Under the pieces are notes generated by a model. The model made no database searches and was not told the origin of the DNA. It saw nothing but the letters and a program-made list of their open reading frames with translations. A stretch of 64,000 nt of DNA from an uncultured virus (IMG/VR IMGVR_UViG_2623621010_000003) (taxonomy: Duplodnaviria; Heunggongvirae; Uroviricota; Caudoviricetes): the IMG/VR virus record IMGVR_UViG_2623621010_000003; one strand, written 5' to 3'. The position numbers were made by a program, and so were the translations under genes. The number at the start of each line of letters is the position of its first letter. Positions within the stretch are counted from its first letter, which is position 1. Positions 9,687 through 54,243 of the stretch are shown piece after piece.

Positions 9687-9739
9687 TCTCCAATTCTATT
9701 CATATTTACATCATATGTGCCATTTCGTGTAGTTTTACT

Positions 9740-10810: not shown

Positions 10811-10827
10811 TACGGAATTCTTTAATC

Positions 10828-13645: not shown

Positions 13646-13914
13646 TCGAACTCTTATTTCAAACCATTGCTGTTTTAGCCTATCTCTTTTGTGGTGTTCG
13701 TATTGTCTGCTTTAGCCGTGATGAAACATCATTTCACCGTGGCTATTCTTGGCTTGCAGCTTTACTGATTGCCTCATTCCTTGGGCAGTCTGTGCACATT
13801 CTTTTCTTTAAAGATCCTGTCACCCTATGGGATGCCATCTTCGCCATATTACTTGCCCTGATTGTGCTACGGAGTCGCGGTAATGTTGCCAAACTGATCT
13901 GGAGTCCATCATGA
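13642..13914 (+). CDS. phage holin-family membrane protein
   Basis: 3 TM segments, [16 protein letters not shown]-terminus. Confidence 0.7.
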
Positions 13915-14765
13915 AATTATTGAAGTTTGGAGCTAAAGGTTCAGCCGTTTCTGAGCTACAGCAACTCCTGATTAAACACAGCATGAAGGGGAAAAATAAC
14001 AAGTTACTTTCTGTGGATGGTGATTTTGGCGAAAGCACTGAATATGCCGTGATTCAATTCCAGAAGAAGATAGGCATTAAAGTGGATGGCATTGTCGGGA
14101 ATGCAACACTCAATGCCCTCAAAGGTCTAGACATCTCTAAGCACTTAAAAGATGAGGACTTAACGACTGGTGCAAAACGTCTAGATGTCCCTGAAATTGT
14201 CATTCGCGCAATTGCTGAAGTTGAAACACTTGGTGATGGTTACTTGCCTGATGGTCGACCAAAAATTCTATTTGAACGTCACCGTATGTATTTCTATCTC
14301 AGCCAGAAACGTGGAAAAGACTTTGCTGACCAAATGATGAAGCAGTACCCCAATGTCGTGAACACCCAGACTGGTGGCTACCATGGCAATGCTGCTGAAT
14401 ACACCCGTTTGACTTTGGCCAAACAAATTGATGAAGACTGTGCCCTAATGTCTGCTTCTTGGGGACGTTTTCAATTGATGGGTGAAAACTGGAAAGACCT
14501 TGGCTATTCATCTGTACAAGAATTTATCAAACAGCACTATCAAAGTGAAAGCCTACAGTTTGAAGCTTTTCTACGTTTCTGCGAGTTCAAGTCAGGTACG
14601 GTCGCTGGCAAAAAGTGGACTTTACTGGAGGCATTACGCCAGGAGAACTGGGATGCTGTATTTAGTCTGTATAACGGTCGCAATTATAAAAAACTCGGCT
14701 ATGACACCAAGTTTCTTCGCGTTATGAACCGCCTAGATCCTAGCAATCAGAGCAATGTAGCATGA
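13911..14765 (+). CDS. endolysin: PG-binding domain + N-acetylmuramidase (DUF3380-like)
   Basis: VDGDFG..T..AV..FQ...[32 protein letters not shown]. Confidence 0.92.
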
Positions 14766-15741: not shown

Positions 15742-15768
15742 CTTTGTCGCTAAAATGAAGAAGTTCTA

Positions 15769-15791
15769 TTTGTAATATCCCCTCTTACAAA
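15769..15791. promoter_or_regulatory. Ogr-type box upstream of V
   Basis: TTTGTAATATCCCCTCTTACAAA. Confidence 0.75.
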
Positions 15792-15835
15792 TTGCCATTA
15801 ATGCAAGACACACAGCCTTAACGCAAAGTAGGCAC

Positions 15836-21579: not shown

Positions 21580-21586
21580 ATTCGAA

Positions 21587-21609
21587 TTTGTAGCATACCC
21601 TCTTACAAA
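21587..21609. promoter_or_regulatory. Ogr-type box upstream of FI
   Basis: TTTGTAGCATACCCTCTTACAAA, followed by hairpin 21607-21634. Confidence 0.75.
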
Positions 21610-21682
21610 ACCCCACGCTTAAAACGTGGGGTTTTATATGCAAGCCTTTTGTTGAACTAGAACATCAACAAAAGGTTGCCCT

Positions 21683-29512: not shown

Positions 29513-29557
29513 ATCGTATTTCACTTAGCAAATCACATTCAAAAATAAAAATCACAA

Positions 29558-29580
29558 TTTGTAGCATCCCCTCTTACAAA
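29558..29580. promoter_or_regulatory. fifth Ogr-type box
   Basis: Identical to 9888-9910, not upstream of a known structural gene. Confidence 0.7.
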
Positions 29581-29698
29581 TTGAAGTCCGTGAAAAATGC
29601 TTCTTTCAAAAATAGACTCATCAGACAAAACAAAACCCCAAAGATTCAGAGTCTTTGAGGTTTCTGTATTCAATCCCTACACAACTAAGGATCAAATC

Positions 29699-31025: not shown

Positions 31026-31769
31026 TTAAGCAGCTTCGTCTAAAGCATTTCTTTTACTTTTATCTTTGTTAATTTTTTCTAGTTTTAAAAAATTCTGTGC
31101 AGCTTCTGGCTTTAAAAAGCCCCAGAGCACATACAAAGAGAATATGAAAACCGCGATAAAAAAGAGAAACACTACAGTGAATACACTACTTGAAATTGCT
31201 GGAGCCTGTTCTTTGTAAAGGACAGGAAGAAGTATCATTAAAATTAAAGGGCTTGCCCCAAATATATTAATAAGAATGTACCAAAATGTACCCCATAAAG
31301 AATCAGACTTTAATTTCTTCTCAGTATACTTAGGCTTTAATTTGTATAGATTTGTTTCTTCATCCTTTTCAAGATAATCTTTTCCTATTTTAAACAGCTT
31401 CACCGCTTTTACTCGGTCACGACACGACATAATAAGTGATAGCAAATCTAAATCTTTATTTTTGATATTTAGATAATTCTCAAGCTTTGAAACCTTAACG
31501 TGGTACTCCAACTCACTAGCATATTCTTTTAAAAACTCATCTTCTAAAAGCTTTTCATGCTCAGTAATTTGTTCGTTACGCTTTTTTCTTCTGTGGTCTG
31601 AATAGTCTCTTATACCTGCGACCACGCCAGATTTAGCAATGAAATAAGTAGCTGCCACCAACGCGGCAATAACAATCAAAGCATAGATAAGTTCTAGGCC
31701 ATAATTTTGTTCTAAAATTTTTAGGAATACTTGGGTCGCATCTAAGTCACCATTCAAATTAACCGCCAT
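31026..31769 (-). CDS. 3-TM hypothetical membrane protein
   Basis: ORF track; N-terminal and two C-terminal hydrophobic segments. Confidence 0.7.
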   Translation of the reverse strand: MAVNLNGDLDATQVFLKILEQNYGLELIYALIVIAALVAATYFIAKSGVVAGIRDYSDHRRKKRNEQITEHEKLLEDEFLKEYASELEYHVKVSKLENYLNIKNKDLDLLSLIMSCRDRVKAVKLFKIGKDYLEKDEETNLYKLKPKYTEKKLKSDSLWGTFWYILINIFGASPLILMILLPVLYKEQAPAISSSVFTVVFLFFIAVFIFSLYVLWGFLKPEAAQNFLKLEKINKDKSKRNALDEAA

Positions 31770-36469: not shown

Positions 36470-37939
36470 ATGACTTTACTTCAATTAATTAAGGACGATA
36501 AAAATATTCATGGTCAGAATGGCTATATAAATGCTATACGAAATAAAATTAATCTAGAACCAATCTCTGACATTACAGATGATCAAGGCAACCAATATGT
36601 TGATTTAGTGATGGAAGGCGGGACTGTCTGGGGGTTAGCTTTAATAGGCTATACTTACACATTAGAACAAGCTGGCATTCGATTTCTAAACTTAGCAGGG
36701 ACTTCAGCAGGATCAATAAATGCTATGATTCTCGCTTCATTAGGACAATCCTCAGATCCCAAAAGCGAAAAATTATTAAATATTTTTGACCAAATGGATT
36801 TAAAAAGTTTTGTAGATGGCGGTACTCTAGCAAATGAACTAACCAAAGATATTGAACAAAAAGATAACCCTTTTTTTGCGATGCTTCCAAAAATTATAGG
36901 ACTACTCACGCTTGGTAAATTCGGTAAAAATAAACTAGGCATCAATCCAGGAGAAACTTTTGAAAGATGGTTAGAAAAGCAATTGAGTGATAATGGTGTT
37001 ACAACTACAGCTCATCTCTTTAGAAAAATGAAAAATGAAAAATTACAAATAAGAAAGAATGCGAGAAGAATCAATCCTATCGAGGATCTCGAGCGCTTCA
37101 AGAATAATTTTCAAACCAATGAATTAGCTATTATTGCATCAGATATATCTACCGAAAGTAAAATTACATTTCCACAGATGGGATATTTATATTGGGAAGA
37201 TCCATTAAGTATTAATCCTAAAATATTTGTTAGAGCATCAATGTCTATTCCAGTATTTTTTGAGCCTGTCAGATTAGGAAATTTACCAAAAAAACGTAAA
37301 GAATATTGGAGAGCATTGACTGGTTATGATGGGGAACTACCTGATGTGGCTTACCTTGTTGATGGTGGCGTGATTTCAAACTTTCCTATTGATATTTTCC
37401 ATTCACATGACTGTATACCTTTGTGCCCAACATTTGGCGCGAAGCTAGGAATAGATAGAGATAAGCCATCTAAGATCGAAAGCATATCCGACTTTGCCTC
37501 TGCAATATTTGAAACGCTGAGACATAACAATGACTTCACTTTTTTATTTAAGAATGAAGATTACAAACTTTTAATTGCGTATATAGATACTTCACAAAAA
37601 TATTTAGCTAAAGATTCGACGGAAAATAAAAATTTCATAGAGAAAATAGTAGATAAATTCAAAAAAGAAGAATCTGATACCTTTAGTGCTCTTGATTTCA
37701 ATATGTCTAATCAAAAGAAAGCAGCATTATTTGCCTTAGGTGCAAAAGCTGCTTATGAGTTTATTTGTGGAAATGATAAATACCATGAAAACAAATATTT
37801 AACACCAATTCCTTCTGGATCAATTCCTCCATTTGATTGGGAATCATATAAAGATTTACGTAATCAATTGATTGTAGTTGATGCTGAAGAATACAAAGCA
37901 AGGAAACAAAGAATAAAAAGATTCTCTTTATTACCCTAA
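36470..37939 (+). CDS. patatin-like phospholipase
   Basis: LVMEGG..WG, GTSAG nucleophile, RASMSIP.FF, DGG catalytic motif. Confidence 0.88.
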   Translation: MTLLQLIKDDKNIHGQNGYINAIRNKINLEPISDITDDQGNQYVDLVMEGGTVWGLALIGYTYTLEQAGIRFLNLAGTSAGSINAMILASLGQSSDPKSEKLLNIFDQMDLKSFVDGGTLANELTKDIEQKDNPFFAMLPKIIGLLTLGKFGKNKLGINPGETFERWLEKQLSDNGVTTTAHLFRKMKNEKLQIRKNARRINPIEDLERFKNNFQTNELAIIASDISTESKITFPQMGYLYWEDPLSINPKIFVRASMSIPVFFEPVRLGNLPKKRKEYWRALTGYDGELPDVAYLVDGGVISNFPIDIFHSHDCIPLCPTFGAKLGIDRDKPSKIESISDFASAIFETLRHNNDFTFLFKNEDYKLLIAYIDTSQKYLAKDSTENKNFIEKIVDKFKKEESDTFSALDFNMSNQKKAALFALGAKAAYEFICGNDKYHENKYLTPIPSGSIPPFDWESYKDLRNQLIVVDAEEYKARKQRIKRFSLLP

Positions 37940-41834: not shown

Positions 41835-42860
41835 TTAATTATGCCTGTTAAACGCTTCCACCAAATCATCCGCATTGGGGTTGTAGTAAGTATTCACCAA
41901 CACATCAATTTTCTTATGTCCAGTAATCTTGGCCAACACTTCTACAGGCAATTTTCTAACCCGAACCATCCGCGTAATGGCTTCATGTCGGGTATCGTGA
42001 AAATGCAGACCACTTAAACCCACCGCTTCCTTTCGTCTTTCCCACATTAACCGAAACGCATTTTCAGACTGCGGAATCACCTTTTTACCATCATGCTTAA
42101 TCAAATCCAACAATGCCCGCGCTTCTTCAGTCAAAGGTACATTGCGAGGCTCACCATTCTTGGTTTTCGGCAGGTGAATATGATGCTCATGCACATCTTT
42201 CTTTTGTAGCGTAATTAATTCACCCCGACGTACAGCCGTTTCCAAAGCAAACAAAAATCCCCATGCGACATAATGCTGTGGCAAAACTGGAGTTTCCCCC
42301 ACTTCATAATCCAACGCTTTCAGCATTAACTCAATTTCAGACTTATGAATACGACGCGATCGCGCTTTTGGCTTCTTCGGCTTGGTAATCAGCATCCATG
42401 GGTTTTCATCGATTAGAAACAGCTCTTTTTGTGCATAAGTAAAAATAGCACTATAAAAAGAGATCTCTTTTAAAACCGTATTCGCCCCAACCTCTCCAGA
42501 TCGGCGGTTGCGCCAGTTGGTCAGTTGCTTTGGAGTAATGTCATGCACAGACGTACCCGACAGAAAACCAAATTTTTCATCAAATATACCAAGCTGACCT
42601 TTAATCCAACTGCGGGAACTTTTAGACTCTTTATATTGGCCAACATGCTCGTAGTAGTGATCGACCAACTCTCTAAACGAAAATTTAGGCTTAATCCCTT
42701 GCTCTTCTTCTCTGGTAGCAATTTTGGACTCTAATATTTTTTTCGCAGCCCACTGTTCACATTCTCGACTGGTGTCACGGGTGCAAGATACACGTTTTCC
42801 ATCAATTTGAAGCTGAATACGGTAAACATCGCCTCTTTTAACGGGCTTTGGCATTTTCAT
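41835..42860 (-). CDS. int: tyrosine integrase
   Basis: ETAVRRGE, TKNG, FHDTRHEA, TGH, YY catalytic residues; adjacent to att. Confidence 0.95.
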   Translation of the reverse strand: MKMPKPVKRGDVYRIQLQIDGKRVSCTRDTSRECEQWAAKKILESKIATREEEQGIKPKFSFRELVDHYYEHVGQYKESKSSRSWIKGQLGIFDEKFGFLSGTSVHDITPKQLTNWRNRRSGEVGANTVLKEISFYSAIFTYAQKELFLIDENPWMLITKPKKPKARSRRIHKSEIELMLKALDYEVGETPVLPQHYVAWGFLFALETAVRRGELITLQKKDVHEHHIHLPKTKNGEPRNVPLTEEARALLDLIKHDGKKVIPQSENAFRLMWERRKEAVGLSGLHFHDTRHEAITRMVRVRKLPVEVLAKITGHKKIDVLVNTYYNPNADDLVEAFNRHN

Positions 42861-43004: not shown

Positions 43005-43049
43005 TGGTAGGCATATCCAGACTCGAACTGGAGACCTCTACGATGTCAA
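43005..43049 (-). repeat. att core = 3' half of tRNA-Val(GAC), junction between the two prophages
   Basis: Identical to 862-906; no tRNA 5' half adjacent. Confidence 0.92.
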
Positions 43050-43288
43050 TATCAAGCTATAACCTGATATAAGCCATTGGAATATAACAATTTGATAGGT
43101 TATTTTTGAGCTTTTTTTAGTCAAAAATTTACCCAACTAGACCCAATAAAATCAATAATTTAGCACTTCATTTCTCTACAACTTTTTAAGCCTTTTCCCT
43201 GAAATGCTTAATAGTAAATTTATCTTATATGTCACTTTGGCAGAGCTATAACGCACCTATAAAAAACCGCCCTTTCAGGCGGTTATTT

Positions 43289-44110
43289 TTACTTGATTAG
43301 GCTGTACCTTTCATGCGGTAAAGTCTTCAACTCAAACATGTGTTGGTAGTCATACGCTGGCAGTTCTACATTGTGCTTTTTGCATAGATCCGATATGGCA
43401 TAGGTCATATAGAACATATTGTCATGCAGCATAGACACCAGTAACGGATTGAGTTTTGCCAATGCTGGGCTATGGGTATTCCACCATGCCTGAAATAGTT
43501 TGGCTTGCCCGCAGAGTATTTCTATAGATTGGTTTTCATCTATATGAATATCCCCTTTTGCTTTAATCTGCATGGTTTCTAGGTAGTCCACAGCGTCTTG
43601 AAAGTGCATCGCCAAAAGTTCGCTATAACGTGGGATGCGGAAGTGCTTGTTATGTCTAGCCCAGAGTTCGGTGCGTTTCTTTGTGCTGCCCTCACAACGT
43701 CGGTCGACGATTTCTTTGAGTATGGCTTGTTGCTCTGCGTTGATTTTTACTCGTGTGTCGATTTGCTGTTGCAGTGACTCTTTGTCCAGTACATCGAGTA
43801 CCCATTTACGGAATTCTTTGGCGACTGGTGTACGAGCAAACATAGCGATTAGGTGACAACCACGTAGGGAAAAGATGCGAGCCTTTATTACTAAATTCGA
43901 GGTGCTCAAATTGACCACCTCGGGAGATTCAATAATTTTCGTCATTTTTGATGTGAACTCATCTGCATAACGATTGAAAATTTTAGTAACAGATCTCGTA
44001 TCAGCATATCCTAAAGCTGTCGCCAATTCTGTTGATGTTAAATATGACAGACCATCTTGTACGATTGGTGAAAAATTTACTTCGTTAAAACTTAATGTTA
44101 AACTGCCCAT
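43289..44110 (-). CDS. Bro-N antirepressor-like protein
   Basis: RIFSLRGCHLIAMFARTPVAKEFRKWVLDVL. Confidence 0.85.
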   Translation of the reverse strand: MGSLTLSFNEVNFSPIVQDGLSYLTSTELATALGYADTRSVTKIFNRYADEFTSKMTKIIESPEVVNLSTSNLVIKARIFSLRGCHLIAMFARTPVAKEFRKWVLDVLDKESLQQQIDTRVKINAEQQAILKEIVDRRCEGSTKKRTELWARHNKHFRIPRYSELLAMHFQDAVDYLETMQIKAKGDIHIDENQSIEILCGQAKLFQAWWNTHSPALAKLNPLLVSMLHDNMFYMTYAISDLCKKHNVELPAYDYQHMFELKTLPHERYSLIK

Positions 44111-44186
44111 AGTTCATATCTCGCTGATTTGACTACACTAAAGCCCTTGCCGTCCAAAGTTCGGGCTTTTTTGTTGTCTGCTAATT

Positions 44187-44342
44187 TCATGCTTTCGCAT
44201 TCTCTTGTTCTTTCAAAAATTGCTCAACAGCCTTATTAATAAGATAGTTCATGGAGCGCTTATCTTCTTTTCCGTAACTTTTAAGCTTTTCATGCAAATC
44301 GCTTTGTAATCGAGCCTTTACGTATACAATTTTTTCTTTCAT
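44187..44342 (-). CDS. Arc-family ribbon-helix-helix repressor
   Basis: VKARL..DLH.KL......RSMN.LI; start taken at MKEKIV. Confidence 0.75.
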   Translation of the reverse strand: MKEKIVYVKARLQSDLHEKLKSYGKEDKRSMNYLINKAVEQFLKEQENAKA

Positions 44343-44358
44343 ATCAACCCTTGATAAT

Positions 44359-44445
44359 GCCTCACTTTGTGGCATTTAAATAAATATAGCCACACTTTGT
44401 GGTAATGTAAATACTTAACACAAAATATTTACCACACTTTGTGGC
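44359..44445. promoter_or_regulatory. three operator repeats CC(A/T)CACTTTGTGG
   Basis: Quasi-palindromic copies at ~44359, 44389 and 44431 between divergent RHH genes. Confidence 0.7.
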
Positions 44446-44457
44446 ATTGAGGTTTTC

Positions 44458-44925
44458 ATGAGTAATCAAACTGATCACACCATAGTTAGATTGCGTGTAC
44501 CACCTGAATTAAAAAAGCAAATAGAAGAATCATCTGAAAATAATAATCGCTCACAAAGTGCTGAAATGGTTGCCCGCTTAGAGGATAGTTTTCTAGTATC
44601 AGACAGTACAGGCAATTCCCAAGCTGATATAAAAATCATTCCATTGCATAACGGGAAAAAACGTGTGATTTATGGGAAGTTACTGAATACATTAGATTTA
44701 GACTACACCCAACCGCTCAGCGACCTGAAAATCGATATCGAGCTGGCACTTGCGACTTTAAGCCGCTCCTCTATTTGGAAAGCATTCCAATTTCTGACTA
44801 AAGACGTAATTGTTGTCCAAGGCAATAACCATCTAAATATTGTGGACAATGGTAAGAAAGGTTTAGGTTGGCTAGTTGTGGAAGACCACTATGTCAACAC
44901 ATCAAAAAAAAATGATGAAAGCTAA
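44458..44925 (+). CDS. Arc/Mnt-family repressor
   Basis: VRLRVPPELK..IE.....NRSQSAEMVARLE.SF. Confidence 0.8.
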   Translation: MSNQTDHTIVRLRVPPELKKQIEESSENNNRSQSAEMVARLEDSFLVSDSTGNSQADIKIIPLHNGKKRVIYGKLLNTLDLDYTQPLSDLKIDIELALATLSRSSIWKAFQFLTKDVIVVQGNNHLNIVDNGKKGLGWLVVEDHYVNTSKKNDES

Positions 44926-45048
44926 GTTAAGTTAATTTTTAGCGTTAAAGCGAAGTTAACTTTAGTAGTGGGAAGAATATCGGCTATTGGTACTCGATTC
45001 CTAGAAGTGTAAGTTTTAGGGATTAAAAAAAGCACCGTAAGGTGCTTT

Positions 45049-46572
45049 TTATGTATAGTTACTGCCAAATAATTCATCTGAATCTAAACAGCACTTTTTG
45101 TACTTTAACTCTGAGCCACAATGACATTTATCATTTCTGCCTTTTTTTACTTTAATTCGAGAATCATGATTTCTAGCTACATCTTTATAATTTGTAAATT
45201 CTCTGAAAATATGTTGTTCTTTTCTTAACTTCTCAGCAGTCTTTTTCTCTTTATAAGGTAATATCTTGGGATATTCAAACAAATAAACTCCCTCACTTCT
45301 ACCTTCTGAACCTAATGGTTGAGTGGCAAGTACTATCACCTTTGTATATTTGGGGTTTAAATATTTTGCAACTAAGCCATATCCATGTGAATAAGCATTT
45401 CTTTTAACTACATATTCCTCAATGCTTTCATTTTCATCTTTCGGTAATAATAAGAAAACATACAATAAATCCTTATATGGAATTGGCTCAATAATTCTAC
45501 CACTTCGTTTATTTGTTGGTACATTTATAAACTTTTCTTTGAAAGCATCAGTCAGCAATGCTCTAAAACTTATGTTTTCAGATGCTAACGTTCTCACTGC
45601 TACTTCGTGAGATGCTAAATCAAGTTCTGCACCTTCCCCAACTTGAGCTGTTACTATTCCATCTGAGAACCTAGTAATTAGCTCCTCCCAATATTTACTT
45701 TTCTCAATTAATATTCTTCTAAGTGTACAATTATAGGAATTTTGATAGGCGTCCCATTCATCTTCTCCTATAAAAACAGCGTTGTCATTTGAAAGTGTAT
45801 ATTGCTTAATTTCATCGAAATTAAATTCATTTCGAGCTAACAAAGATGGTTCCTGAGATAAATAAAATGCTAGAAAATTTTCCTCTCCCATTGAGCCACT
45901 TAAATTATATTTTCTTATGAAAATTTCTTTAAAAGTTAAATAATGTAAGAAATCGGAAATAGTTCCTGTATTTTTAATAACAAGATCTATGGAGTATTCA
46001 TCAAATACGTGCACAAATGTTTTTTCAGTATTAAAATCGTTTAATGTAAATGGCTTTTCCATAACATCTTTTTCTTCCAATGCGTACATATGCACAAATG
46101 TTCCTGAGCTTCCCTCAGCAAACTGGCTAAAATATTTTTTTGCAGGTTCTAATGTATTTTTTGTTAAAGCTACTAGATGAATCTCTAAATTTTTGTTGCT
46201 CAGATCAAATGGAAATTTATTTTGGCATTTTTTATCTAAAAAAACCCTATGAGGATTATTTCTTATCCAGCTTTCTGCTCCATACAATTGATTTATAGAT
46301 TTTTTAACAGAATCTTTATACCATCTTTTCCATGATGTATTTACGTCTTTATTTTCATTAAATTTATTATCTTTGTCTGAAAAAATTATAATTTTATTTC
46401 CAAAAGCAACGATAGCATCACATATTTCAACTCCTTCATTTTTAGTTAATAAATTTCTATCATTACATGGTCCAACATATGACCATAAAGATAAAAAAGT
46501 ATCATTTAATAATTTAGACATTTGTCTTTCACTGTCTGTAACCCCTTCACTTTTATAAATAGGCTTAAGCAT
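45049..46572 (-). CDS. SEC-C motif protein with putative NERD/PD-(D/E)xK-like N-terminal domain
   Basis: EICD.IV.FG..IIIFS.K; C-terminal GRNDKCHCGS..KYKKCC. Confidence 0.65.
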   Translation of the reverse strand: MLKPIYKSEGVTDSERQMSKLLNDTFLSLWSYVGPCNDRNLLTKNEGVEICDAIVAFGNKIIIFSDKDNKFNENKDVNTSWKRWYKDSVKKSINQLYGAESWIRNNPHRVFLDKKCQNKFPFDLSNKNLEIHLVALTKNTLEPAKKYFSQFAEGSSGTFVHMYALEEKDVMEKPFTLNDFNTEKTFVHVFDEYSIDLVIKNTGTISDFLHYLTFKEIFIRKYNLSGSMGEENFLAFYLSQEPSLLARNEFNFDEIKQYTLSNDNAVFIGEDEWDAYQNSYNCTLRRILIEKSKYWEELITRFSDGIVTAQVGEGAELDLASHEVAVRTLASENISFRALLTDAFKEKFINVPTNKRSGRIIEPIPYKDLLYVFLLLPKDENESIEEYVVKRNAYSHGYGLVAKYLNPKYTKVIVLATQPLGSEGRSEGVYLFEYPKILPYKEKKTAEKLRKEQHIFREFTNYKDVARNHDSRIKVKKGRNDKCHCGSELKYKKCCLDSDELFGSNYT

Positions 46573-46672
46573 TTTTTATCTACAATAATTTTAGTTAAAA
46601 CAAATATATATTTTTTTTAAAGTTATTCAATATGTATTTTTTTTAAGATAAAAGCGCCTCACGGCGCTCTAC

Positions 46673-46957
46673 TTATGCAAAATTCTGAACCAATTTCTTT
46701 ATGACTGGCCGTTGACGTTGGCTGGCATTCCATAAATCATGCTGCATCTGCAAATTCAGCCAAAACTCTGGAGAAGTTTCCAAAGCCTCGCTTAAACGAA
46801 TTGCCATATCTGCTGAAATACCTGTATGGCCATTCAAAATACGAGATAGATTTGCACGAGTAACGCCTAGTGCTTGAGCTGCCTCCGTCACAGGAGTTTC
46901 ACCAATGTATTCCCGTAACATTTCACCAGGATGTGGTGCATTAAACATCATATTCAT
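46673..46957 (-). CDS. higA: HigA antitoxin
   Basis: HPGEML, LGVTR..LS.I.NG..GIS.DMAIRL, PEFWLNLQ. Confidence 0.93.
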   Translation of the reverse strand: MNMMFNAPHPGEMLREYIGETPVTEAAQALGVTRANLSRILNGHTGISADMAIRLSEALETSPEFWLNLQMQHDLWNASQRQRPVIKKLVQNFA

Positions 46958-46978
46958 CTTAGTACTCCTGCGCTGGGC

Positions 46979-47260
46979 TTAGTGATAGTCCAGATAATCC
47001 ACAATGTAGACATCACCATCTTCAAATTTAAAAATTACCCGCCAATTACCGTTTACAGTCAGCGACCATTGATCTTGTAGATTTCCACTTAACTTGTGCA
47101 ATCGCCAATTGGGTGGAGTTCTTAGATCATTCACTGTAGAGGCAGCATGTAACGCTGCGAGGATTAAACGTAATTTGGCAGAATGCGCTGCTTGAATACC
47201 TGCTGTTGTACCAGTTTGGAAAAAAGCCTGAAGACCTTTATGTTTAAAACTCTTAATCAA
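46979..47260 (-). CDS. higB: HigB toxin (RelE family)
   Basis: IKSFKHKGL, LHKLSG, WSLTVNGNWRV.F.F, DYLDYH. Confidence 0.93.
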   Translation of the reverse strand: MIKSFKHKGLQAFFQTGTTAGIQAAHSAKLRLILAALHAASTVNDLRTPPNWRLHKLSGNLQDQWSLTVNGNWRVIFKFEDGDVYIVDYLDYH

Positions 47261-47340
47261 GCTTTAGCATCCATTCGTATAGCGTATATATACAATATAC
47301 ACCACCTTAAAAAATATGTATAGCCGATAAACCCCATATA

Positions 47341-47406
47341 AAGATAAAGTGCCCCACGGCGCTTTATTTATGCAAAATTCTGAACCAACTTCTTAATGAT
47401 TGGTCG
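47341..47406 (-). pseudogene. duplicated higA 3' end plus terminator
   Basis: Diverged copy of 46645-46711, encodes RPIIKKLVQNFA*. Confidence 0.7.
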
Positions 47407-47463
47407 AACCCAATCCATGATGGTTTCAAATAAGATATTGATGCTCAATGTAAAATTTCAAGA

Positions 47464-47491
47464 ATTTTGCAGAAGGTGTATTATGTTGATT
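47464..47491 (+). other. XerC|XerD (pdif-like) site
   Basis: ATTTTGCAGAA-GGTGTA-TTATGTTGATT. Confidence 0.75.
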
Positions 47492-47520
47492 TTAGGAATT
47501 ATTAATTTTAAAAATTACTT

Positions 47521-48030
47521 ATGCTCAAAGCTTTTATGCTAGTTGTCGTGTTAATTTCAACTTCTATCAATAATCTATCGCATGCAGAGACCAATACATT
47601 GAAGGAAAATATGATATTAGAACCATTTATATTTGAAATTGGTTCTAATTTTTCAGATATTCAAACTAAATTCAGCTTAGAAGCAAAGACTTCAGGAGTA
47701 AATTTCATTAAAGAATCAAACTGGTACAGATTAAAAACACCTGTAGGATTTATTTCCCTTCAAGAGTGGAAAGGTAAACTTCATTCTATTGCTTATGAAA
47801 TTGATATAGATGATGTAGAAACAAAAAAGAAATTAATAAACTATCTATTTGAAAAATATAAAAATAATTTTGAATGGGTAGAACGGGTTGATAATGGGTT
47901 TTATATTTCATATGAATCATCTAATGATTCTATCCAAGGAATCCATGCTTATTCATTAGGAACAACTATTTCTTTTACTAGTAATGAAATTAGAAAAGCT
48001 GAAACAAAGGTTCGATTTCCAAATCTTTAA
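47521..48030 (+). CDS. exported hypothetical protein (cassette 1)
   Basis: Signal-peptide-like N-terminus ending SHA; AT-rich; between pdif sites. Confidence 0.65.
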   Translation: MLKAFMLVVVLISTSINNLSHAETNTLKENMILEPFIFEIGSNFSDIQTKFSLEAKTSGVNFIKESNWYRLKTPVGFISLQEWKGKLHSIAYEIDIDDVETKKKLINYLFEKYKNNFEWVERVDNGFYISYESSNDSIQGIHAYSLGTTISFTSNEIRKAETKVRFPNL

Positions 48031-48045
48031 TTTGTGAAACCAGTT

Positions 48046-48073
48046 ATTTAACCTAATGGAGCTTATTCGAAAC
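48046..48073 (-). other. XerD|XerC (pdif-like) site
   Basis: ATTTAACCTAA-TGGAGC-TTATTCGAAAC. Confidence 0.72.
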
Positions 48074-48223
48074 TGGCATCATTTCGAGGGCTTTTTTTCA
48101 TTAACCCACTACACACCTACGGCGATATGAACATATGCAAATGATCATAAAGAAGCCATGATAGTGCGCTGAACCCATTATGGATTCATATAAGATATTG
48201 ATGCTTAATGTAAAAGTTTAAGA

Positions 48224-48251
48224 ATTTTGCATATGGTGTATTATGTTGATT
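48224..48251 (+). other. XerC|XerD (pdif-like) site
   Basis: ATTTTGCATAT-GGTGTA-TTATGTTGATT. Confidence 0.75.
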
Positions 48252-48334
48252 TTAGAGAAGTTTAAGAGTCAATACTAATGTAATTTATTAATCCTTTATT
48301 TTTAGGCTAATCAAGATATTCGAGTTATGTAGAT

Positions 48335-48631
48335 ATGAATGATGTAAGAGATGGGTTGTTGCTCTTGGAAATGGATGAAAATAGTCTAGAAAAATATACA
48401 TACTCCTTGAAAGATATGAGGAAAGTAATCATTTATGCGCTTTCTGAAAGCGTATCAAACTATTGGCCTGAATTAGCTTTAAACTGGCTTCAAAAAAAAC
48501 CTGAATATCTTGATAGTGATGTTTTATATTGGATTGATAATCTAATTAAGGATAAAAATAATTATTCTCAGAAGGTTAGACATCTGGCTACAAAGATACG
48601 TAAGAATTTTTTGGAAATACCTAGTACATAA
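48335..48631 (+). CDS. small helical hypothetical protein (cassette 2)
   Basis: ORF between pdif sites; YWPELALNWL motif. Confidence 0.65.
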   Translation: MNDVRDGLLLLEMDENSLEKYTYSLKDMRKVIIYALSESVSNYWPELALNWLQKKPEYLDSDVLYWIDNLIKDKNNYSQKVRHLATKIRKNFLEIPST

Positions 48632-48652
48632 TTATGAGTGATGTATAGGCTC

Positions 48653-48689
48653 CTTTAACATAATGGGCAATATACGTATTATGTTGGTT
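48653..48689. other. XerD|XerC site overlapped by a second XerD arm
   Basis: CTTTAACATAA-TGGGCA-ATATACGTATT then TTATGTTGGTT at 48679-48689. Confidence 0.62.
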
Positions 48690-48714
48690 AAGCCCCATTT
48701 AAAGAACAAAAATC

Positions 48715-49140
48715 ATGTGTGAATGCCAATCTGTAGGTAATTTTTTTGTATGTCCGACTAATTTTTCAGATATTTTTAGCCATAACTACAATATAAAAGA
48801 TAGGTTTCCTCGTTACATAGTTGAAGATACTCCATGTGAGGAAGCACAACCAGAATTTGATTATGGTGAGTTTTATTATGTTTGTGCTGAATGTCAGCAA
48901 CCGTGGTATTTTGAATGTTATGCAGAAACGCCAACAAGTCCTATTTTTGGAATAAAACTTCTAGATATAAAGAAAACACTAAACCAAAATCAAATAAACA
49001 GTATTAAACAGTTCTTGGTTGTTTTAGCTCATGAGGGCTTTTCAGAAAGTAAGTGTATTCATCAGGGATGTCTGGACTATTCTCTTAATGGCATTAAGGT
49101 ATGCCTCAATCATTTTGGCTATAAATTTAGCCCCCATTAA
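48715..49140 (+). CDS. Cys-rich hypothetical protein (cassette 3)
   Basis: CxC, CxxC, C..C..C..H clusters; between pdif sites. Confidence 0.65.
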   Translation: MCECQSVGNFFVCPTNFSDIFSHNYNIKDRFPRYIVEDTPCEEAQPEFDYGEFYYVCAECQQPWYFECYAETPTSPIFGIKLLDIKKTLNQNQINSIKQFLVVLAHEGFSESKCIHQGCLDYSLNGIKVCLNHFGYKFSPH

Positions 49141-49148
49141 GAATATCA

Positions 49149-49176
49149 ATTCAACCTGATGGCGATTATTCTAAAT
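49149..49176 (-). other. XerD|XerC (pdif-like) site
   Basis: ATTCAACCTGA-TGGCGA-TTATTCTAAAT; same spacer as 9751-9756. Confidence 0.65.
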
Positions 49177-49180
49177 GCCC

Positions 49181-49471
49181 TCACTTGAGGGCTTCTACCA
49201 TAGCACCATACTTCGTCTTACAGTCGTTATATTTAGCAACTGTATCAATCGACCAAAGCATCACATCTTTACCCTGCCCAGACTCTAACTTTTGCAAATC
49301 CGCACAAGGCTCAAGGAGGTTCGCTGGAATCGTTGGTGATAAGTGAGTTGATTGCTGACACCCCATCATCATCAAAACAATGCTGCTGATACACAGGACG
49401 ATCAATGATCTTTTGCACTTCACGTGTAACTGTTTCGACTTGCACACGTTGCTTTGATTTTTCAGCTTCAT
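49181..49471 (-). CDS. o-spanin (Rz1-like lipoprotein); start uncertain
   Basis: Lipobox-like MMGC, IPANLLEPC, Y.DC; overlaps the Rz gene. Confidence 0.7.
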   Translation of the reverse strand: MKLKNQSNVCKSKQLHVKCKRSLIVLCISSIVLMMMGCQQSTHLSPTIPANLLEPCADLQKLESGQGKDVMLWSIDTVAKYNDCKTKYGAMVEALK

Positions 49472-49688
49472 AATCTGAACTCACTTTATTGATTTGATCT
49501 TGTTTGGCTGCCAGGGCTTTTAAGTGCTTCTGTTCAATTTCCTGCACTTTGGCAATGCACTTGGAATCGGCTTCTTTCAACTGCCCAGATAAACGATTGG
49601 TGTATGCAATTTGGCAAACCCATAAAACAAAAAAGACCGCTATTGCGATCCATGTTTTGAACTTCCATAAGGCTATAAGTATCGGCAT
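49311..49688 (-). CDS. i-spanin (Rz-like)
   Basis: N-terminal TM, coiled coil, RPVY..CFDDDG. Confidence 0.75.
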   Translation of the reverse strand: MPILIALWKFKTWIAIAVFFVLWVCQIAYTNRLSGQLKEADSKCIAKVQEIEQKHLKALAAKQDQINKVSSDYEAEKSKQRVQVETVTREVQKIIDRPVYQQHCFDDDGVSAINSLITNDSSEPP

Positions 49689-50191
49689 TACTGTGCCCCC
49701 ATGCATTTTTCATAACGCTCAACTTGTCGAGTCCAAACGCCATAACAGTTGTTAGATCTAATACTGCAGTCACGCTTGGCAACGTATTTCCATTTCAAAA
49801 GTGACTTACATGCAGCAACGTATTGCCCTGCTTTCAAGTTTCGAAGCATGGAAGATTGATTCCAATTGGCTTGGCCAAAGTTGTAGGTGAAGTCGAGATA
49901 CACGTCATATTCAACTTGAGACAACTTCACACCAGGCATAGATTTACGAAAAGCCACTTCATCTTTGGCCACATGTGCCTTTGCCCATTCCAAAGCTGTT
50001 TTGCGCGTAATCGGTGGATCAGTCATTTTGATTGGCTGACTATTCGGTTTTACTGTTGAGCCAATCCCTTGAGTCACTACCCCGCCTGAGTCCTTATATG
50101 GCTTGGCAGAGTAGCCTTCATGCAATTCTAGGGACGTAAAAAAAGCAGCCGAAGCTGCTAATCCCATCACCCAATATTTAGTCTTTGACAT
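49688..50191 (-). CDS. GH24 lysozyme endolysin with SAR-like N-terminus
   Basis: HEG.....Y.D..GV.T catalytic triad; FTYNFG. Confidence 0.9.
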   Translation of the reverse strand: MSKTKYWVMGLAASAAFFTSLELHEGYSAKPYKDSGGVVTQGIGSTVKPNSQPIKMTDPPITRKTALEWAKAHVAKDEVAFRKSMPGVKLSQVEYDVYLDFTYNFGQANWNQSSMLRNLKAGQYVAACKSLLKWKYVAKRDCSIRSNNCYGVWTRQVERYEKCMGAQ

Positions 50192-50453
50192 TGCACTCCC
50201 CGTTTAATTTGCGCTTTTCTAGTTCATGTATTTCTTGCTCACGTTGATCTTTACGTTTCTGAAATTGGCGATTCGATAGGAAATTCATGAAGCTAATAAT
50301 CAAACCAGCCAAACCAATTCCAACACCAATTAAAAAACCCCAGTCCCATGTTGCTGCCCAGGACACAAGTGTTACCCCTGTGCCTGTTGCTGTAGTAACT
50401 TTTCCTGCAATCGCTGCTGAAGTTTCAGCAACTGCAGTTGTTGTTTCAGACAT
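50178..50453 (-). CDS. holin
   Basis: TM segment, charged C-terminus, upstream of the endolysin. Confidence 0.7.
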   Translation of the reverse strand: MSETTTAVAETSAAIAGKVTTATGTGVTLVSWAATWDWGFLIGVGIGLAGLIISFMNFLSNRQFQKRKDQREQEIHELEKRKLNGECNVKD

Positions 50454-50530
50454 GTTATTCCCCGAATTTTTGACATAAAAAAAGCCCCGATGTGGGGCCT
50501 GCATAGTTTTGGCTCGTATAAAAGATTCAA

Positions 50531-51514
50531 TTACTCAAAAAGACCACTCATATATTCAAATATAAGCTGCTGATCAGTTGCGTTTGGTATTTTATCAACC
50601 ACCATAGCACCATAGAAATTTCCTACAAATGGAAATGATCCTGAAGGTGAATTTAGCAAGGTTAAAACACTAGCTGGATCATTAAAATCAATAGTATTCG
50701 CTTCAAATTCTCTATTACTAATTGATGTCAAATCCTCCTTAATTACAGGGATATTGTTAGTGACAGAAGGGGTTTGAGAAATTACAAAAACAATATTCTT
50801 ATTTAATGTTGGTGGTGCTGCAGATAAATATTTCGATGTATAAGTTGCTCCAGATGAGAGACTTCTTGAGCATTGAAATAATGTCGTATTTTTAAAAGGA
50901 ACTGTTGTTCTATAGTCGAAATATATAGCACATGCAACATTCGCGGCAGTTGATGGCTCTCCTGTTGAAGCTATTACTTGAGCTGTTGATGGACCTGTTA
51001 CTTTTATCGCCAAAACAATGTATTTATTTTTATCCCTCTCGTGTAAAAATCTCCACTTTGTTTTGTTTGTATCATTCAGCTTTAATACTGAATTTGCACT
51101 GGTTAGATGGTTACCTGTTTTTGGTGGCTTGGTTGAAGATGTAACCAGCATTGCAGCTTCTTTTCCTGCCTTACTTGGTATCGATAATACATTGCCGCTA
51201 CCATCAAGTATGGCATCTTTTACTATCCATGCATCACCTACTGATGCATTTGATAATATCCAATTCTTTAACCAATCGACTGTTGTAAACGTTGACTCCG
51301 AACTAATCTTTTCATTACTACCTCGAACAGCTCCAATCCTAAAGAAATAGTTTTTATTCTCCTCAATTGTTGAGTCTGAATAACTTGTTTCAGTTATCCC
51401 TGTAACAATTGGAGGTGGAAGTCCATTTATAGGCGTAGAAATTTCATATCTATAGTAATTGAAGCTATGAACTAGACCATCGACATGCCAACTTAAATCA
51501 ACTTTTTTACTCAT
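50531..51514 (-). CDS. tail-associated/receptor-binding-like protein (FN3-like N-terminus)
   Basis: LSW...YYRY...Y.D...YFFRIGA pattern; last tail-operon gene. Confidence 0.55.
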   Translation of the reverse strand: MSKKVDLSWHVDGLVHSFNYYRYEISTPINGLPPPIVTGITETSYSDSTIEENKNYFFRIGAVRGSNEKISSESTFTTVDWLKNWILSNASVGDAWIVKDAILDGSGNVLSIPSKAGKEAAMLVTSSTKPPKTGNHLTSANSVLKLNDTNKTKWRFLHERDKNKYIVLAIKVTGPSTAQVIASTGEPSTAANVACAIYFDYRTTVPFKNTTLFQCSRSLSSGATYTSKYLSAAPPTLNKNIVFVISQTPSVTNNIPVIKEDLTSISNREFEANTIDFNDPASVLTLLNSPSGSFPFVGNFYGAMVVDKIPNATDQQLIFEYMSGLFE

Positions 51515-54243
51515 ATTTCATTCACTATCGCAGTTAAGTTATAAGGGGCACTGAAGAAAGTAGAAAGCTCAACAATATGATTGAAATATTGGTACGAGTC
51601 ATATCCCTCTCTCGTTGTTTTTAAAACAATTTGCACCGATCTCGTGGCTGGCTGCATCGAGGACATTGGCAGTGTATAACTGCTCGACCCTGTTACATTG
51701 ACGGCATTACTTGCAAGAACCAGATTGGCTTCATCTAACTCAATCAAGGTTAAATAGGTCTGTGTATTTGCCTCTATCGCAACTCCACTCTCAAACCAAC
51801 CAAGAATTTCACCACCTGTTTGTTGTGATCGATTTCGGTCCACCCATGTCAAAATTAGATCCGTCTCAATTTCTATTGGGAAATATTGACCATTAATTTT
51901 CACATTTGCTGGTGGGTATGGTCGTATAGCACGTGAATGTATAGTGACTGTTTGAGTATCAGAGCCAGATAAATCTAAAATGCCACTTGGTGTCGTACTC
52001 AATGCTTTTACATCTATGGCTTCTCCCAAGGCATACTCAGTCGAATCTACAGCAACAAAATCATCAGCAAAGAATAAAACACTATCATCAGCATGGATTT
52101 TCGGGATTGTATCCAACGCACCGCGCTTTACTGTTAATAACTTAGATGCTGCATCAAAACCTTGAAACACCATAATTTCATTGTTTATAAAGATTTGACT
52201 TCCAATTCGAACAGAAGCCAAGTCTCCAACTTTTTTGACAATAAATGATGATGCAAGTCTGTCTATTGATTGATCAAGTTGAGCTGTTTCACAGTACTGA
52301 ATTACTGCTGAATTTTCATATCCAGTGCCAGCATCTGTATGCATTTGAGCATTCAATGAGTTATTTTGAGAACGTTGTGCTACGACAGCAACATAGCCAG
52401 AATCTGGATTAAAAGCTAACTCATCATCTACTGTACGTTGCCCATGAGCTTGTACAGCTTCAAAATACGATAACTCAAAAGCTTTAAATAAAATGGGTTG
52501 CGGTGGCAATGGTGTCACATCAATCTTGTCATCAATGACCACACTAGATGTTAATTCATCAGAAAATGGTACAACTTCAACAAAATCAATACTGACTGTA
52601 TTGTCTATCCCATCACCCAGATTAATATTCATAATCCGTACCGGCAGATCAGCAATGCCTTTTCTGGACCAATTCAATTTTACGATGTCATAGCGGTTCC
52701 ACTTACGTGCCTGATTATGGCCAGTCGTAAAAGATCCTTTCCAACACGGTGTTGTGAATTGTTTGAGCTTCCATTGCGCTACGACTGCAGCATTACGCTG
52801 ATTCATAAAATATGGAAAATCTGAACTCTCAGCATTGACCCGACCTTGCATATTTTTGATGGATGCATTTTCAGAAATTGAAAATGATGCATTTTTAATA
52901 TTATTGCGATCGTAATAACTCACATTGAGTTGATTCACAACATCATCTGCATTTTGGACTTCAAATGAGATAGATTTAATCTTACTTTCAGCAAGTGTGT
53001 GAATTTCATCTTCTTTAAACCAGTCGTCACGAAACAGTACCATTTCATATAAGCCTGTTTGACGATTGACTCGAATCCCCGCTTCAATGTGCGAACACAA
53101 TTCATTAATGGCATCAATGCATGATTTTTCAGTAATCGCCCATGAAATTCCCAAACCTTCATCCCAAACTCGATCAGCAGCTTTAACGAAATTAGCAACA
53201 TTGACATTATGTTCAGGCTTATTCATTGCTGTATCGTCGGTCAGGATCTCACGGATTTTATGGATCGGATTGATGTCACCAGAATTGGCATAAATTGGGG
53301 TTTGATGGTTATCTAGATTATTGATCACAAAATCATAATTAAACTTAAAGCGACCATCAAAACCATATTTCCCATGCATATCTAAACCAATATCAGTCGC
53401 AGATGAACGACAAATATAGGTCACGCGTCTTGCTTTAAATCCAGAAGTATTTGGATATTCACTACTTACATCTTCTTCTGTATGTTCAAAAATCTCGAGT
53501 CCAGGCGGAACATTGGTATCCATTTCAACTGTGTGATACGTAATCAAATAGCTTACTTTTATAAACTCGAATTGTAAAAATCCAGAGCCTTGCACGCGAT
53601 TCAAAATAGATTGCTTATAGTTACTCACATCGCCTTGGGCATCGTTTGAACCTGAACCATCACTTAAAGGTAATCCCCTAAATAATTCATCTCTCAAATA
53701 TCCAATTTCAAGATCAGCAAAATAGTAAGTAAAAGTTTGATATGGGACATCATTATTGATTTCAAAGTTATTTTTATAATCTACAATATTGGTTAAATCT
53801 GGAACTTCTGCTTTAGCTTCATACCATTGCGGACCGTAATCATTCTTAATGTGAATTCGCTTTGGCCAAAGCAACATTTCTTTCATGTAGCCTGAATTGC
53901 CTAGATAAAAATCTTCAAATGCAAGATAGGATTGAAACGGATAAGCCAATGGTGGTAAGTCATTTTCAGCAAGATAATCTGTATAAAAAGAGACTGGCAT
54001 AGGATTGGCTGTGCCATAACGTGCATGGATTTGCCCAGTAACACCGCCCTCATTTTCCCCAAATAAATTTGGTTTATTGATCATTCCAACATCCAGCGGA
54101 TTACCCTGATCATCAAGTAATGGGATTGCCCATCCACGCTTATCAAAATTAATGCCCAGCAATTTTTCAATCGGATTACCAATAAACAAAAGAAAATTGG
54201 CAAAGTATTGATAGCCTGTGACTTGCTTACTGCTCCCGCCCAT
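51511..54243 (-). CDS. tail tip/host-specificity protein
   Basis: MGGSSKQVTGY.Y, NLFG..EGGV.G, RGALDT.P, RA.RPYPP. Confidence 0.8.
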   Translation of the reverse strand: MGGSSKQVTGYQYFANFLLFIGNPIEKLLGINFDKRGWAIPLLDDQGNPLDVGMINKPNLFGENEGGVTGQIHARYGTANPMPVSFYTDYLAENDLPPLAYPFQSYLAFEDFYLGNSGYMKEMLLWPKRIHIKNDYGPQWYEAKAEVPDLTNIVDYKNNFEINNDVPYQTFTYYFADLEIGYLRDELFRGLPLSDGSGSNDAQGDVSNYKQSILNRVQGSGFLQFEFIKVSYLITYHTVEMDTNVPPGLEIFEHTEEDVSSEYPNTSGFKARRVTYICRSSATDIGLDMHGKYGFDGRFKFNYDFVINNLDNHQTPIYANSGDINPIHKIREILTDDTAMNKPEHNVNVANFVKAADRVWDEGLGISWAITEKSCIDAINELCSHIEAGIRVNRQTGLYEMVLFRDDWFKEDEIHTLAESKIKSISFEVQNADDVVNQLNVSYYDRNNIKNASFSISENASIKNMQGRVNAESSDFPYFMNQRNAAVVAQWKLKQFTTPCWKGSFTTGHNQARKWNRYDIVKLNWSRKGIADLPVRIMNINLGDGIDNTVSIDFVEVVPFSDELTSSVVIDDKIDVTPLPPQPILFKAFELSYFEAVQAHGQRTVDDELAFNPDSGYVAVVAQRSQNNSLNAQMHTDAGTGYENSAVIQYCETAQLDQSIDRLASSFIVKKVGDLASVRIGSQIFINNEIMVFQGFDAASKLLTVKRGALDTIPKIHADDSVLFFADDFVAVDSTEYALGEAIDVKALSTTPSGILDLSGSDTQTVTIHSRAIRPYPPANVKINGQYFPIEIETDLILTWVDRNRSQQTGGEILGWFESGVAIEANTQTYLTLIELDEANLVLASNAVNVTGSSSYTLPMSSMQPATRSVQIVLKTTREGYDSYQYFNHIVELSTFFSAPYNLTAIVNEI

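Follow-up and report, generated by a model that had tools for sequence, protein, structure and literature searches.

Plasmid-type dif modules beside the lysis genes of a siphovirus-like Acinetobacter prophage

Background

Blackwell and Hall are said to have described, in 2017, pdif-bounded dif modules of Rep_3 plasmids in Acinetobacter. Such modules are a main route of accessory-gene reshuffling in Acinetobacter plasmids and have so far been treated as a plasmid feature, with a few chromosomal copies. Integrative mobile elements exploiting Xer recombination (IMEX), such as CTX-phi-type phages, integrate at chromosomal dif. Here we describe an array of three small gene cassettes bounded by dif-like sites (positions 47464-49176) beside the lysis genes of a prophage, in a 64,000-nucleotide (nt) stretch of DNA from an uncultured virus of the Caudoviricetes (IMG/VR record IMGVR_UViG_2623621010_000003); this whole stretch is called the window below.

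According to the accessible text of Blanchais et al. 2025 (PMC11705084), Acinetobacter baumannii XerC and XerD bind most plasmid xrs and cut them, the same enzymes do not excise cassettes from either inverted or direct site pairs, and near-identical centres give rise to xerC-dependent inter-plasmid cointegrates in 0.1-1% of the population. The available text of Mindlin et al. 2019 (PMC6449649) reports Acinetobacter chromosomes with additional dif sites and whole modules away from dif1, and cites Girlich et al. 2017 for a Proteus prophage XerC/XerD site with an OXA-58 module. Similarly, the portions available of Bonnin et al. 2020 (PMC7280188) describe an XerC/XerD site in a Proteus mirabilis prophage that is "empty" in one strain and holds an OXA-58 module in another. 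Given the published chromosomal modules and the Proteus prophage site, an earlier reading of the window from its letters alone (hereafter the sequence-only reading) went too far in naming the array its top candidate for an undescribed system. For dif-module arrays in Acinetobacter prophages we found no description in full-text literature searches, and subscription papers and supplements may hold more.

Results and discussion

Five dif-like sites bound three co-oriented cassettes

Both strands of the window were scanned against the canonical 28-bp site of three plasmid loci (L001-L003), whose XerC and XerD arms (11 nt each) are separated by a 6-nt central region and which occurs without mismatch at L001 3011-3038, L002 3004-3031, and L003 591-618; mismatches are given below as XerC arm + XerD arm, out of 22 arm positions. 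The two sites in C/D order on the plus strand, S1 (47464-47491) and S3 (48224-48251), each have 3+1 mismatches and the central region GGTGTA, and form the outer (left) end of cassette 1 and the left end of cassette 2, respectively. The other three lie on the minus strand and thus read D/C on the plus strand, and their central regions are given as on the minus strand: S2 (48046-48073; 2+2; GCTCCA) at the inner end of cassette 1, S4 (48653-48680; 3+2; TGCCCA) at the right end of cassette 2, and S5 (49149-49176; 2+4; TCGCCA), whose XerC arm abuts the terminator hairpin of the Rz1-like spanin gene. The 11-6-11 architecture is therefore present with 4-5 mismatches in S1-S4 and 6 in S5, and the left site of cassette 3 consists of an XerD arm alone, i.e., an orphan XerD-like arm on the plus strand (48679-48689) that faces cassette 3, overlaps the last 2 nt of the S4 XerC arm, and has no spacer of its own.

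Each cassette holds one gene on the plus strand, encoding a 169-amino-acid (aa) protein with an N-terminal signal-peptide-like stretch (cassette 1; 47521-48030), a 98-aa predicted all-helical repeat protein (cassette 2; 48335-48631), and a 141-aa Cys/His-rich protein (cassette 3; 48715-49140). In all three, the sites form inverse pairs with the XerD arms pointing toward the gene (S1/S2, S3/S4, and the orphan arm/S5, respectively). Rescanning reproduced exactly the five sites that the sequence-only reading had listed, along with its three co-oriented genes with inward XerD arms, its extra D arm at S4, and the distance of 4 nt between the end of S5 and the Rz1 open reading frame (ORF; 49181-49471).

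Within the region 47300-49300 (G+C content of 31.4%), 3 sites had at most 4 mismatches, 4 had at most 5, and 5 had at most 6, compared with means of 0.003, 0.032, and 0.27, respectively, in dinucleotide shuffles, of which 0 of 2000 reached the observed counts. Across the full window (39.5% G+C), 5 sites had at most 4 mismatches (shuffle mean 0.04; reached by 0 of 200 shuffles). At up to 5 mismatches the window held 8 sites, including two within ORFs (4972-4999 and 31047-31074) that are unsupported and possibly chance matches. The sequence-only reading had mentioned neither the near-canonical pair at 9245-9767 nor the poor S5 XerD arm nor an 84-nt repeat that holds S1 and S3. As a remark only, the S4 arms (at 48655-48682) resemble a sigma-70 -35/-10 pair (10 of 12 positions) aimed at cassette 3; a promoter and terminator scan of the region found fewer promoter-like sites than in its shuffles, which is why we give this likeness no weight, and found no terminator.

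The same modules occur on Acinetobacter plasmids

Megablast of 47300-49300 against 72,556 plasmids matched three records, all of them from Acinetobacter (pAJ4131, pAJ14, and pNL2). Cassette 2 (aligned over 48221-48676) is 90% identical at the nucleotide level to A. johnsonii pAJ4131 and pAJ14, and in both plasmids the similarity starts in S3 and stops in S4, with unrelated DNA outside. The cassette 2 gene lies between canonical sites in these two plasmids, and S4 aligns with the D/C site that closes the module in each. Likewise, cassette 1 (47454-48016) is 91% identical at the nucleotide level to A. lwoffii pNL2, with the similarity starting at S1. Cassette 3 is related at the protein level (78% aa identity) to a gene on a plasmid of Acinetobacter sp. 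ESL0695 (L084), which is flanked by sites at 3946-3973 and 4688-4715 and adjoins an annotated SMI1/KNR4 gene. This homologue is preceded by a full C/D site, and DNA similarity to the window begins about 9 nt inside its XerD arm, which marks the orphan arm at 48679-48689 as what remains of the left site of that module; the two modules have a common left end and different right ends.

In the three megablast plasmids, the left site with GGTGTA is the first after the repM and DNA-binding-protein genes, and this central region is common to S1, S3, and the rep-proximal site of L001-L003. By sequence comparison, what S1-S5 delimit are true dif (pdif/xrs) modules such as Acinetobacter plasmids carry, as the sequence-only reading had supposed: cassettes 1 and 2 have counterparts at 90-91% nucleotide identity and cassette 3 has a site-flanked homologue. 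With either 47300-49300 or 43200-52000 as query, megablast found nothing in the phage collection. A search of IMG/VR with the canonical-site pattern was also tried and set aside; it matched at least 114 contigs, almost all of which had a single site and many of which were marine, so the pattern is not Acinetobacter-specific.

The array lies in a prophage, at a recurring position beside Rz1

The window comprises two prophages in tandem, i.e., a P2-like myovirus followed by a siphovirus-like prophage arm. A 50-nt attachment repeat (862-911 and 43005-43054; 96% identical) bounds the P2-like prophage and has 100% matches in A. baumannii chromosomes. From its letters the repeat could be read as the 3' part of a tRNA gene, which ARAGORN and Rfam, neither giving a match, did not confirm. 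In the siphovirus-like arm, the tail genes run on the minus strand from 64000 down to 51511 and are followed by the lysis genes as identified with Pfam and PHROG: holin-like (50178-50504), endolysin (49688-50191), Rz (49311-49706), and Rz1 (49181-49471, minus strand), which has PHROG spanin matches and is the last conserved gene of the lysis cassette. Beyond these come the cassette array, a HigBA pair, a SEC-C-motif protein, an Arc-like protein, a Bro-N protein, and the repeat. Using the endolysin, whose closest named relative is that of A. tandoii DSM 14970 (95% aa identity), we collected 112 loci of relatives (80 from IMG/VR and 32 from genomes). In 7 of the 80 and 4 of the 32, the core of the repeat lies past the endolysin, at a distance of about 1-4 kb, and this places the array inside the prophage, as had been proposed, and in its variable arm. 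Among the 57 window ORFs scanned with Pfam there was no XerC or XerD gene; the sole tyrosine recombinase (41835-42860) scored 28 bits against the NCBIfam XerD model (cut-off 329.6), in line with the earlier statement that no xer gene is present.

Backbone homology between the window and its relatives ends at 49165-49185, where the Rz1 terminator hairpin meets the outer edge of the S5 XerC arm. The layout of an Rz1 end followed by XerC arm, centre, and XerD arm was seen four times: at S5, at S2 (where what looks like a leftover of the final Rz1 codons and the terminator hairpin adjoins the XerC arm), and in the relatives L014 and L203. Three of these instances (S5, L014, and L203) are whole modules, and the cargo is different in each. 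The IMG/VR prophage L014 has a module at 9423-10812, with sites at 9423-9450 (1+0) and 10785-10812 (1+1), that carries a 402-aa ORF with weak HEPN-type matches. In the A. tandoii DSM 14970 prophage (L203), the module at 13311-14103, with sites at 13311-13338 (2+1) and 14076-14103 (1+0), carries a 188-aa ORF with a signal peptide, and two insertion sequence (IS) copies lie between Rz1 and the first site. S5 and the first L203 site have the same position and the same central region. After the dock, L014 (10956-13568) and L203 (14518-17227) carry the same morons, namely umuC, a umuD-like gene, and a gene for an SOS response-associated peptidase (SRAP).

The outer sides of S1 and S3 are also alike. 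An 84-nt direct repeat (47412-47495 and 48172-48255; 89% identical) includes both sites, and the flank of about 52 nt outside each of them has its homologous counterpart outside the second L203 site. The first flank copy (47412-47463), outside the S1 XerC arm, is thus present in the A. tandoii prophage too, and the second (48172-48223) lies in the spacer between S2 and S3 (48074-48223), which has no ORF and also contains the Rz1-end-like remnant (about 48074-48100). The simplest reading would be that the backbone of this phage lineage has a two-site dock, made of an Rz1-abutting site and an inverted site with the conserved flank, and that this dock is present twice, one copy after the other, in the window: dock A (Rz1, S5, cassette 3, S4, cassette 2, S3, flank) and dock B (Rz1 remnant, S2, cassette 1, S1, flank). 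Across the 80 IMG/VR loci, all 12 sites with at most 5 mismatches lay downstream of the endolysin (234 kb downstream compared with 603 kb upstream; binomial p = 2e-7, a value that takes no account of the higher A+T content there), and in the 32 genome loci 2 sites were downstream and 1 upstream, which is not significant.

Variants in public sequencing runs

Nineteen runs from 12 studies contain 56-72% of the sampled words of 47300-49300, and the contigs of four of them (X1, X2, X12, and X15) were compared with 44000-52000. One X12 contig (3983 nt) covers 46653-49122 with 47 differences and one X15 contig (4048 nt) covers 46653-49247 with 49 differences, indicating that HigBA, the three cassettes, S5, and the Rz1 end travel together elsewhere. 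To the left of 46653, where a 61-nt direct repeat around HigBA begins, these two contigs diverge.

A different arrangement was found in one contig each of X1 and X15, which match the window from 49160 rightward (the S5 centre and XerC arm, and Rz1) and have other DNA to the left. The break falls at the border between XerD arm and spacer of S5, and the last 11 letters to its left differ from the XerD arm at 3 positions; this is the pattern that would be expected of an exchange at S5. The exact 24-nt S5 junction (49160-49183) had no match in viral, metagenome, or genome contigs. In the isolate run X12, a 41-nt contig over 47473-47508 had a depth of 1736 compared with 116, which indicates that this stretch of centre and XerD arm is multi-copy in the isolate. 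Contigs of X1 and X2 that diverge after 47505-47508 with three continuations were not counted, as the leftward extent of their match is not visible.

A fourth module in the P2-like prophage

The P2-like prophage contains a fourth dif module (9245-9767), formed by an inverse site pair (9245-9272, C/D, 1+1, centre CGTGCA; and 9740-9767, D/C, 0+2, centre TCGCCA on the minus strand) that brackets an Imm41 gene (9276-9686, minus strand; 136 aa; Pfam Imm41 6.6e-21). The module sits between the divergent terminase and scaffold genes. Its central regions recur at dock sites of the siphovirus-like lineage: the 9740 site has that of S5 and the first L203 site, and the 9245 site has that of the second L203 site. 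An Imm41 homologue (68% aa identity) on plasmid pYH12138-1 also lies in a site-bounded module, beside BrnTA and PAAR-protein modules. On the same plasmid (L085), positions 5257-7533 form a site-bounded module with two PAAR-domain genes and two small ORFs, and toxin/immunity genes of the type VI secretion system kind seem to travel as dif modules on plasmids.

None of 38 relatives of the P2-like prophage had a site with at most 5 mismatches. Two of them (L233 and L234) have different small ORFs in the gap between terminase and scaffold genes, and two others (L237 and L238) have a single copy there of a 37-nt motif that the window has in two copies 776 nt apart. This near-palindromic motif occurs five times in the window (9111-9147, 9887-9923, 15768-15804, 21586-21622, and 29557-29593), upstream of P2-type late operons, and the copies resemble the Ogr-dependent late promoters of phage P2. 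In relatives, small ORFs are inserted between motif copies in the terminase-scaffold gap, which hints at a second kind of cassette junction.

Mechanism and alternative explanations

We think it probable that the array represents three genuine dif modules at two-site docks and that the modules are swapped by host XerC/XerD via cointegration. What we observed directly is the sites, plasmid homology that ends at them, their location in a prophage, and the recurrence of the dock with different cargo. Mechanistically, host XerC/XerD would join a site in the prophage to one on a plasmid or phage whose central region matches, forming a cointegrate, and resolution at a second site pair would leave a swapped module; for S1 and S3, the rep-proximal GGTGTA sites of plasmids would be candidate partners. 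The cointegrate route has been demonstrated for plasmids and free cassette circles have not, according to the available text of PMC11705084. Catalysis by Xer enzymes, the direction of transfer, and any activity at present are what we infer from these patterns.

A number of observations weigh against this account. The sites in the window are degenerate, with 4-6 mismatches each compared with 0-2 in most plasmid sites; the XerD arm of S5 departs from the canonical site at 4 positions, cassette 3 has a bare XerD arm in place of a full left site, and, in the accessible text of PMC11705084, the highly degenerate site xrs107 was poorly bound and showed no recombination. The array may thus be partly fossil. 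The right end of cassette 1 is not comparable with its plasmid counterpart, since pNL2 is interrupted there by an IS66 element. Few of the 112 relative loci have sites at all; clear pairs were found only in L014 and L203, L012 has two weak 4-mismatch sites in the same orientation, and the downstream enrichment of sites is uncorrected for A+T content. All 18 relatives with homology up to the Rz1 end lack a dif-like site there (best at least 7 mismatches), so most of the family is without the dock, and because their cargo differs nonetheless, exchange at the Rz1 spot needs no Xer sites. The check proposed in the sequence-only reading, whether gene content changes at the sites, came out in its favour at the site next to Rz1, where L014, L203, and the X1/X15 contigs differ in content. 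The direct repeats of 84 and 61 nt and the remnant of Rz1, inside or beside the array, show that recombination among related phages, homologous or illegitimate, had a part in its making as well. In the P2-like relatives, breakpoints fall 30-100 nt outside the sites, so the fourth module arrived together with flanking DNA. Finally, the contigs of the four runs showed no S1-S3 joint and no inversion and left parts of 44000-46650 uncovered, which says little given that contigs drop rare variants.

Much of this evidence could also be explained if one or more plasmid segments with dif modules had entered the prophage arm by homologous or illegitimate recombination, for instance with a plasmid or among related prophages in the same cell, and their sites had since decayed, with Xer enzymes not acting now and perhaps never having acted. 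The mismatched sites, the orphan arm, the poor S5 XerD arm, the repeats, the Rz1 remnant, and the site-less exchange of cargo at the same spot all suit such an origin, as does the inheritance of the block 46653-49247 as a unit, at about 98% identity, in other samples. We nevertheless regard it as unlikely, as it sits poorly with a dock that recurs with near-canonical sites and different cargo in L014 (1+0, 1+1) and L203 (2+1, 1+0), with the X1/X15 variant that breaks at the XerD-arm/spacer border of S5 and has an XerD-like arm of its own, and with plasmid homology that stops at the sites. Far less probable is the integron-like mechanism put forward in the sequence-only reading, by which single cassettes would be excised as circles and re-inserted at an attI-like site of the phage, as an active system of moron capture and shuffling. 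Several co-oriented cassettes do stand in an array at a fixed position, and the direct repeats S1 and S3 have identical centres in a geometry that permits deletion, but no dedicated integrase and no attI- or attC-type element was found (the only recombinase in the window is the phage integrase, 4.6 kb away and in the other prophage), A. baumannii XerCD gave no cassette deletion with either type of site pair, inverted or direct, in the accessible text of PMC11705084, and the missing S1-S3 joint in the contigs argues weakly in the same direction. That the sites are chance matches in A+T-rich intergenic DNA might be supposed from the 31% G+C of the region and the A+T-rich consensus; this is refuted by the composition-matched shuffles (0 of 2000 reached the observed counts) and by the plasmid alignments, in which the homologues have canonical sites at the same places.

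Returning to exchange by host XerC/XerD, the array suggests that Acinetobacter phages and plasmids trade genes via the Xer enzymes of the cell. More tentatively, some Acinetobacter temperate phages might keep a dedicated two-site XerC/XerD dock by the lysis cassette and swap modules with Rep_3 plasmids and with each other through cointegration and resolution by the host enzymes, and the cargo observed here (Imm41, the HEPN-like protein, and the small orphan proteins) would be a travelling stock of immunity and defence genes; we hold this wider proposal to be possible and somewhat doubtful. If it were true, dif modules would constitute one gene pool across plasmids, chromosomes, and virions.

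Proteins of the cassettes

None of the three cassette proteins had a Pfam match at E<=0.01, a PHROG match, or an NCBIfam match, and PADLOC gave a single weak match (cassette 2 to PDC-M02B, E 0.0095). The cassette 1 protein has 21 related protein clusters, of which those with names are from Acinetobacter, and it is unrelated by BLASTP to the 188-aa protein of the L203 module. For cassette 2, with 61 related protein clusters, the AlphaFold2 model is a helical repeat (predicted local distance difference test, pLDDT, 86.4); an Atlas lead to HEAT/DUF5071 was too weak to use. The cassette 3 protein (42 representative relatives; AlphaFold2 pLDDT 89) belongs to a family in which C57, C60, C114, C119, C130, and H133 are nearly invariant. 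A zinc-ribbon family match (0.0034) was obtained for 1 of 30 of its relatives, and its Atlas cluster (score 0.90) includes Imm27 in 16% of members, which is too weak to use. One relative (P0090; 511 aa) has six matching stretches and is thus a tandem-repeat form of the small Cys-rich domain. Foldseek against the PDB with the models of cassettes 2 and 3 found no match at E<=0.001, and VIA-align with the cassette 3 model found nothing at Z>=2.

The leading guess is that the cargo of cassettes 1-3 consists of immunity or defence proteins. This guess comes from the company they keep, i.e., Imm41 in the fourth module, the HEPN-like ORF of L014, the SMI1/KNR4 and PAAR neighbours on plasmids, and the weak Imm27 lead. 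The toxin-immunity or defence cargo suspected in the sequence-only reading was thus borne out for the Imm41 module and, weakly, for the HEPN-like ORF, and not for cassettes 1-3 themselves, for which family and structure searches yielded no usable match to immunity relatives. Four small module-borne protein families are flagged by this work, two of them with confident predicted folds and no solved relative.

Neighbouring genes

The HigBA toxin-antitoxin pair to the left of the array (46651-47406, minus strand) comprises higA (46673-46957; NCBIfam HigA 7.4e-27) and higB (46979-47260; Pfam HigB 5.8e-28). On either side of the pair stands a copy of a 61-nt direct repeat (46651-46711 and 47346-47406), which takes in the 3' end of higA. 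Each copy of the repeat has, at the higA stop region, an 11-mer that agrees with the reverse complement of the S1/S3 XerC arm at 10 of 11 positions, with no adjoining XerD arm. HigBA may be a decayed dif module. A distant blastn search of 46600-47470 against plasmids returned only a 113-nt match of 74% identity, present in 59 plasmids, and the pD36-4 example was uninformative. The next gene (45049-46572) encodes a 507-aa protein with a C-terminal SEC-C motif, which matches phrog_18195 over its full length (4.9e-105) and PADLOC weakly, on the C-terminal motif only.

The P2-like prophage (862-43054) looks complete and shares its attachment repeat with the siphovirus-like prophage that follows it; its genes include portal, terminase, GpO scaffold, P2 capsid, sheath, tube, Ogr, and integrase (41835-42860). 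Between the attachment site and the portal gene lie genes for a KAP-family P-loop NTPase (3083-4495) and a putative AbiC-domain protein (4520-6049), which are likely defence cargo, and the early region contains a patatin-like phospholipase gene (36470-37939; Pfam 4.3e-26).

Comparison with known systems

With the dif modules of the Acinetobacter chromosomes in PMC6449649, the window shares pdif-like sites and modules away from dif1; in the available text of that paper, those sites are not assigned to Acinetobacter prophages (the word prophage is used only for Proteus) and no recurrent phage dock is described. The Proteus mirabilis prophage site of PMC7280188 is similar in being a dif-like site in a prophage that can be empty or occupied, but it comes from another genus and holds a single resistance module, and the accessible part of that report describes no array, no link to lysis genes, and no family-wide recurrence. 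Integron arrays resemble the window in their ordered, small, mostly promoter-less, and co-oriented cassettes at one locus, whereas no intI, attI, or attC was found in the window, its junctions are dif-like, and the recombinase would be the XerCD of the host. Like IMEX, the phage would make use of host XerCD; unlike IMEX, its Xer-type sites bound cargo inside the phage, and the 50-nt attachment repeat at the ends of the prophages bears no relation to dif.

The closest likeness is to the plasmid dif modules, with which the window has in common the 11-6-11 sites, the inward XerD arms, the 90-91% nucleotide identity of cassettes 1 and 2, and the rep-proximal central region GGTGTA. It differs from them in having a temperate phage as carrier, a fixed position in the backbone by the lysis cassette, more degenerate sites, and a cargo of orphan small proteins instead of resistance or known adaptive genes. 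The modules themselves are of a known kind, and what is new here is that modules of the plasmid type occupy a dock that recurs in the genomes of temperate phages. If this holds, a phage dock with modules about 90% identical to those of plasmids would mean that a housekeeping enzyme connects the gene pool of the plasmids with that of the phages, and would offer a testable account of how morons are gained beside the lysis genes in this phage family.

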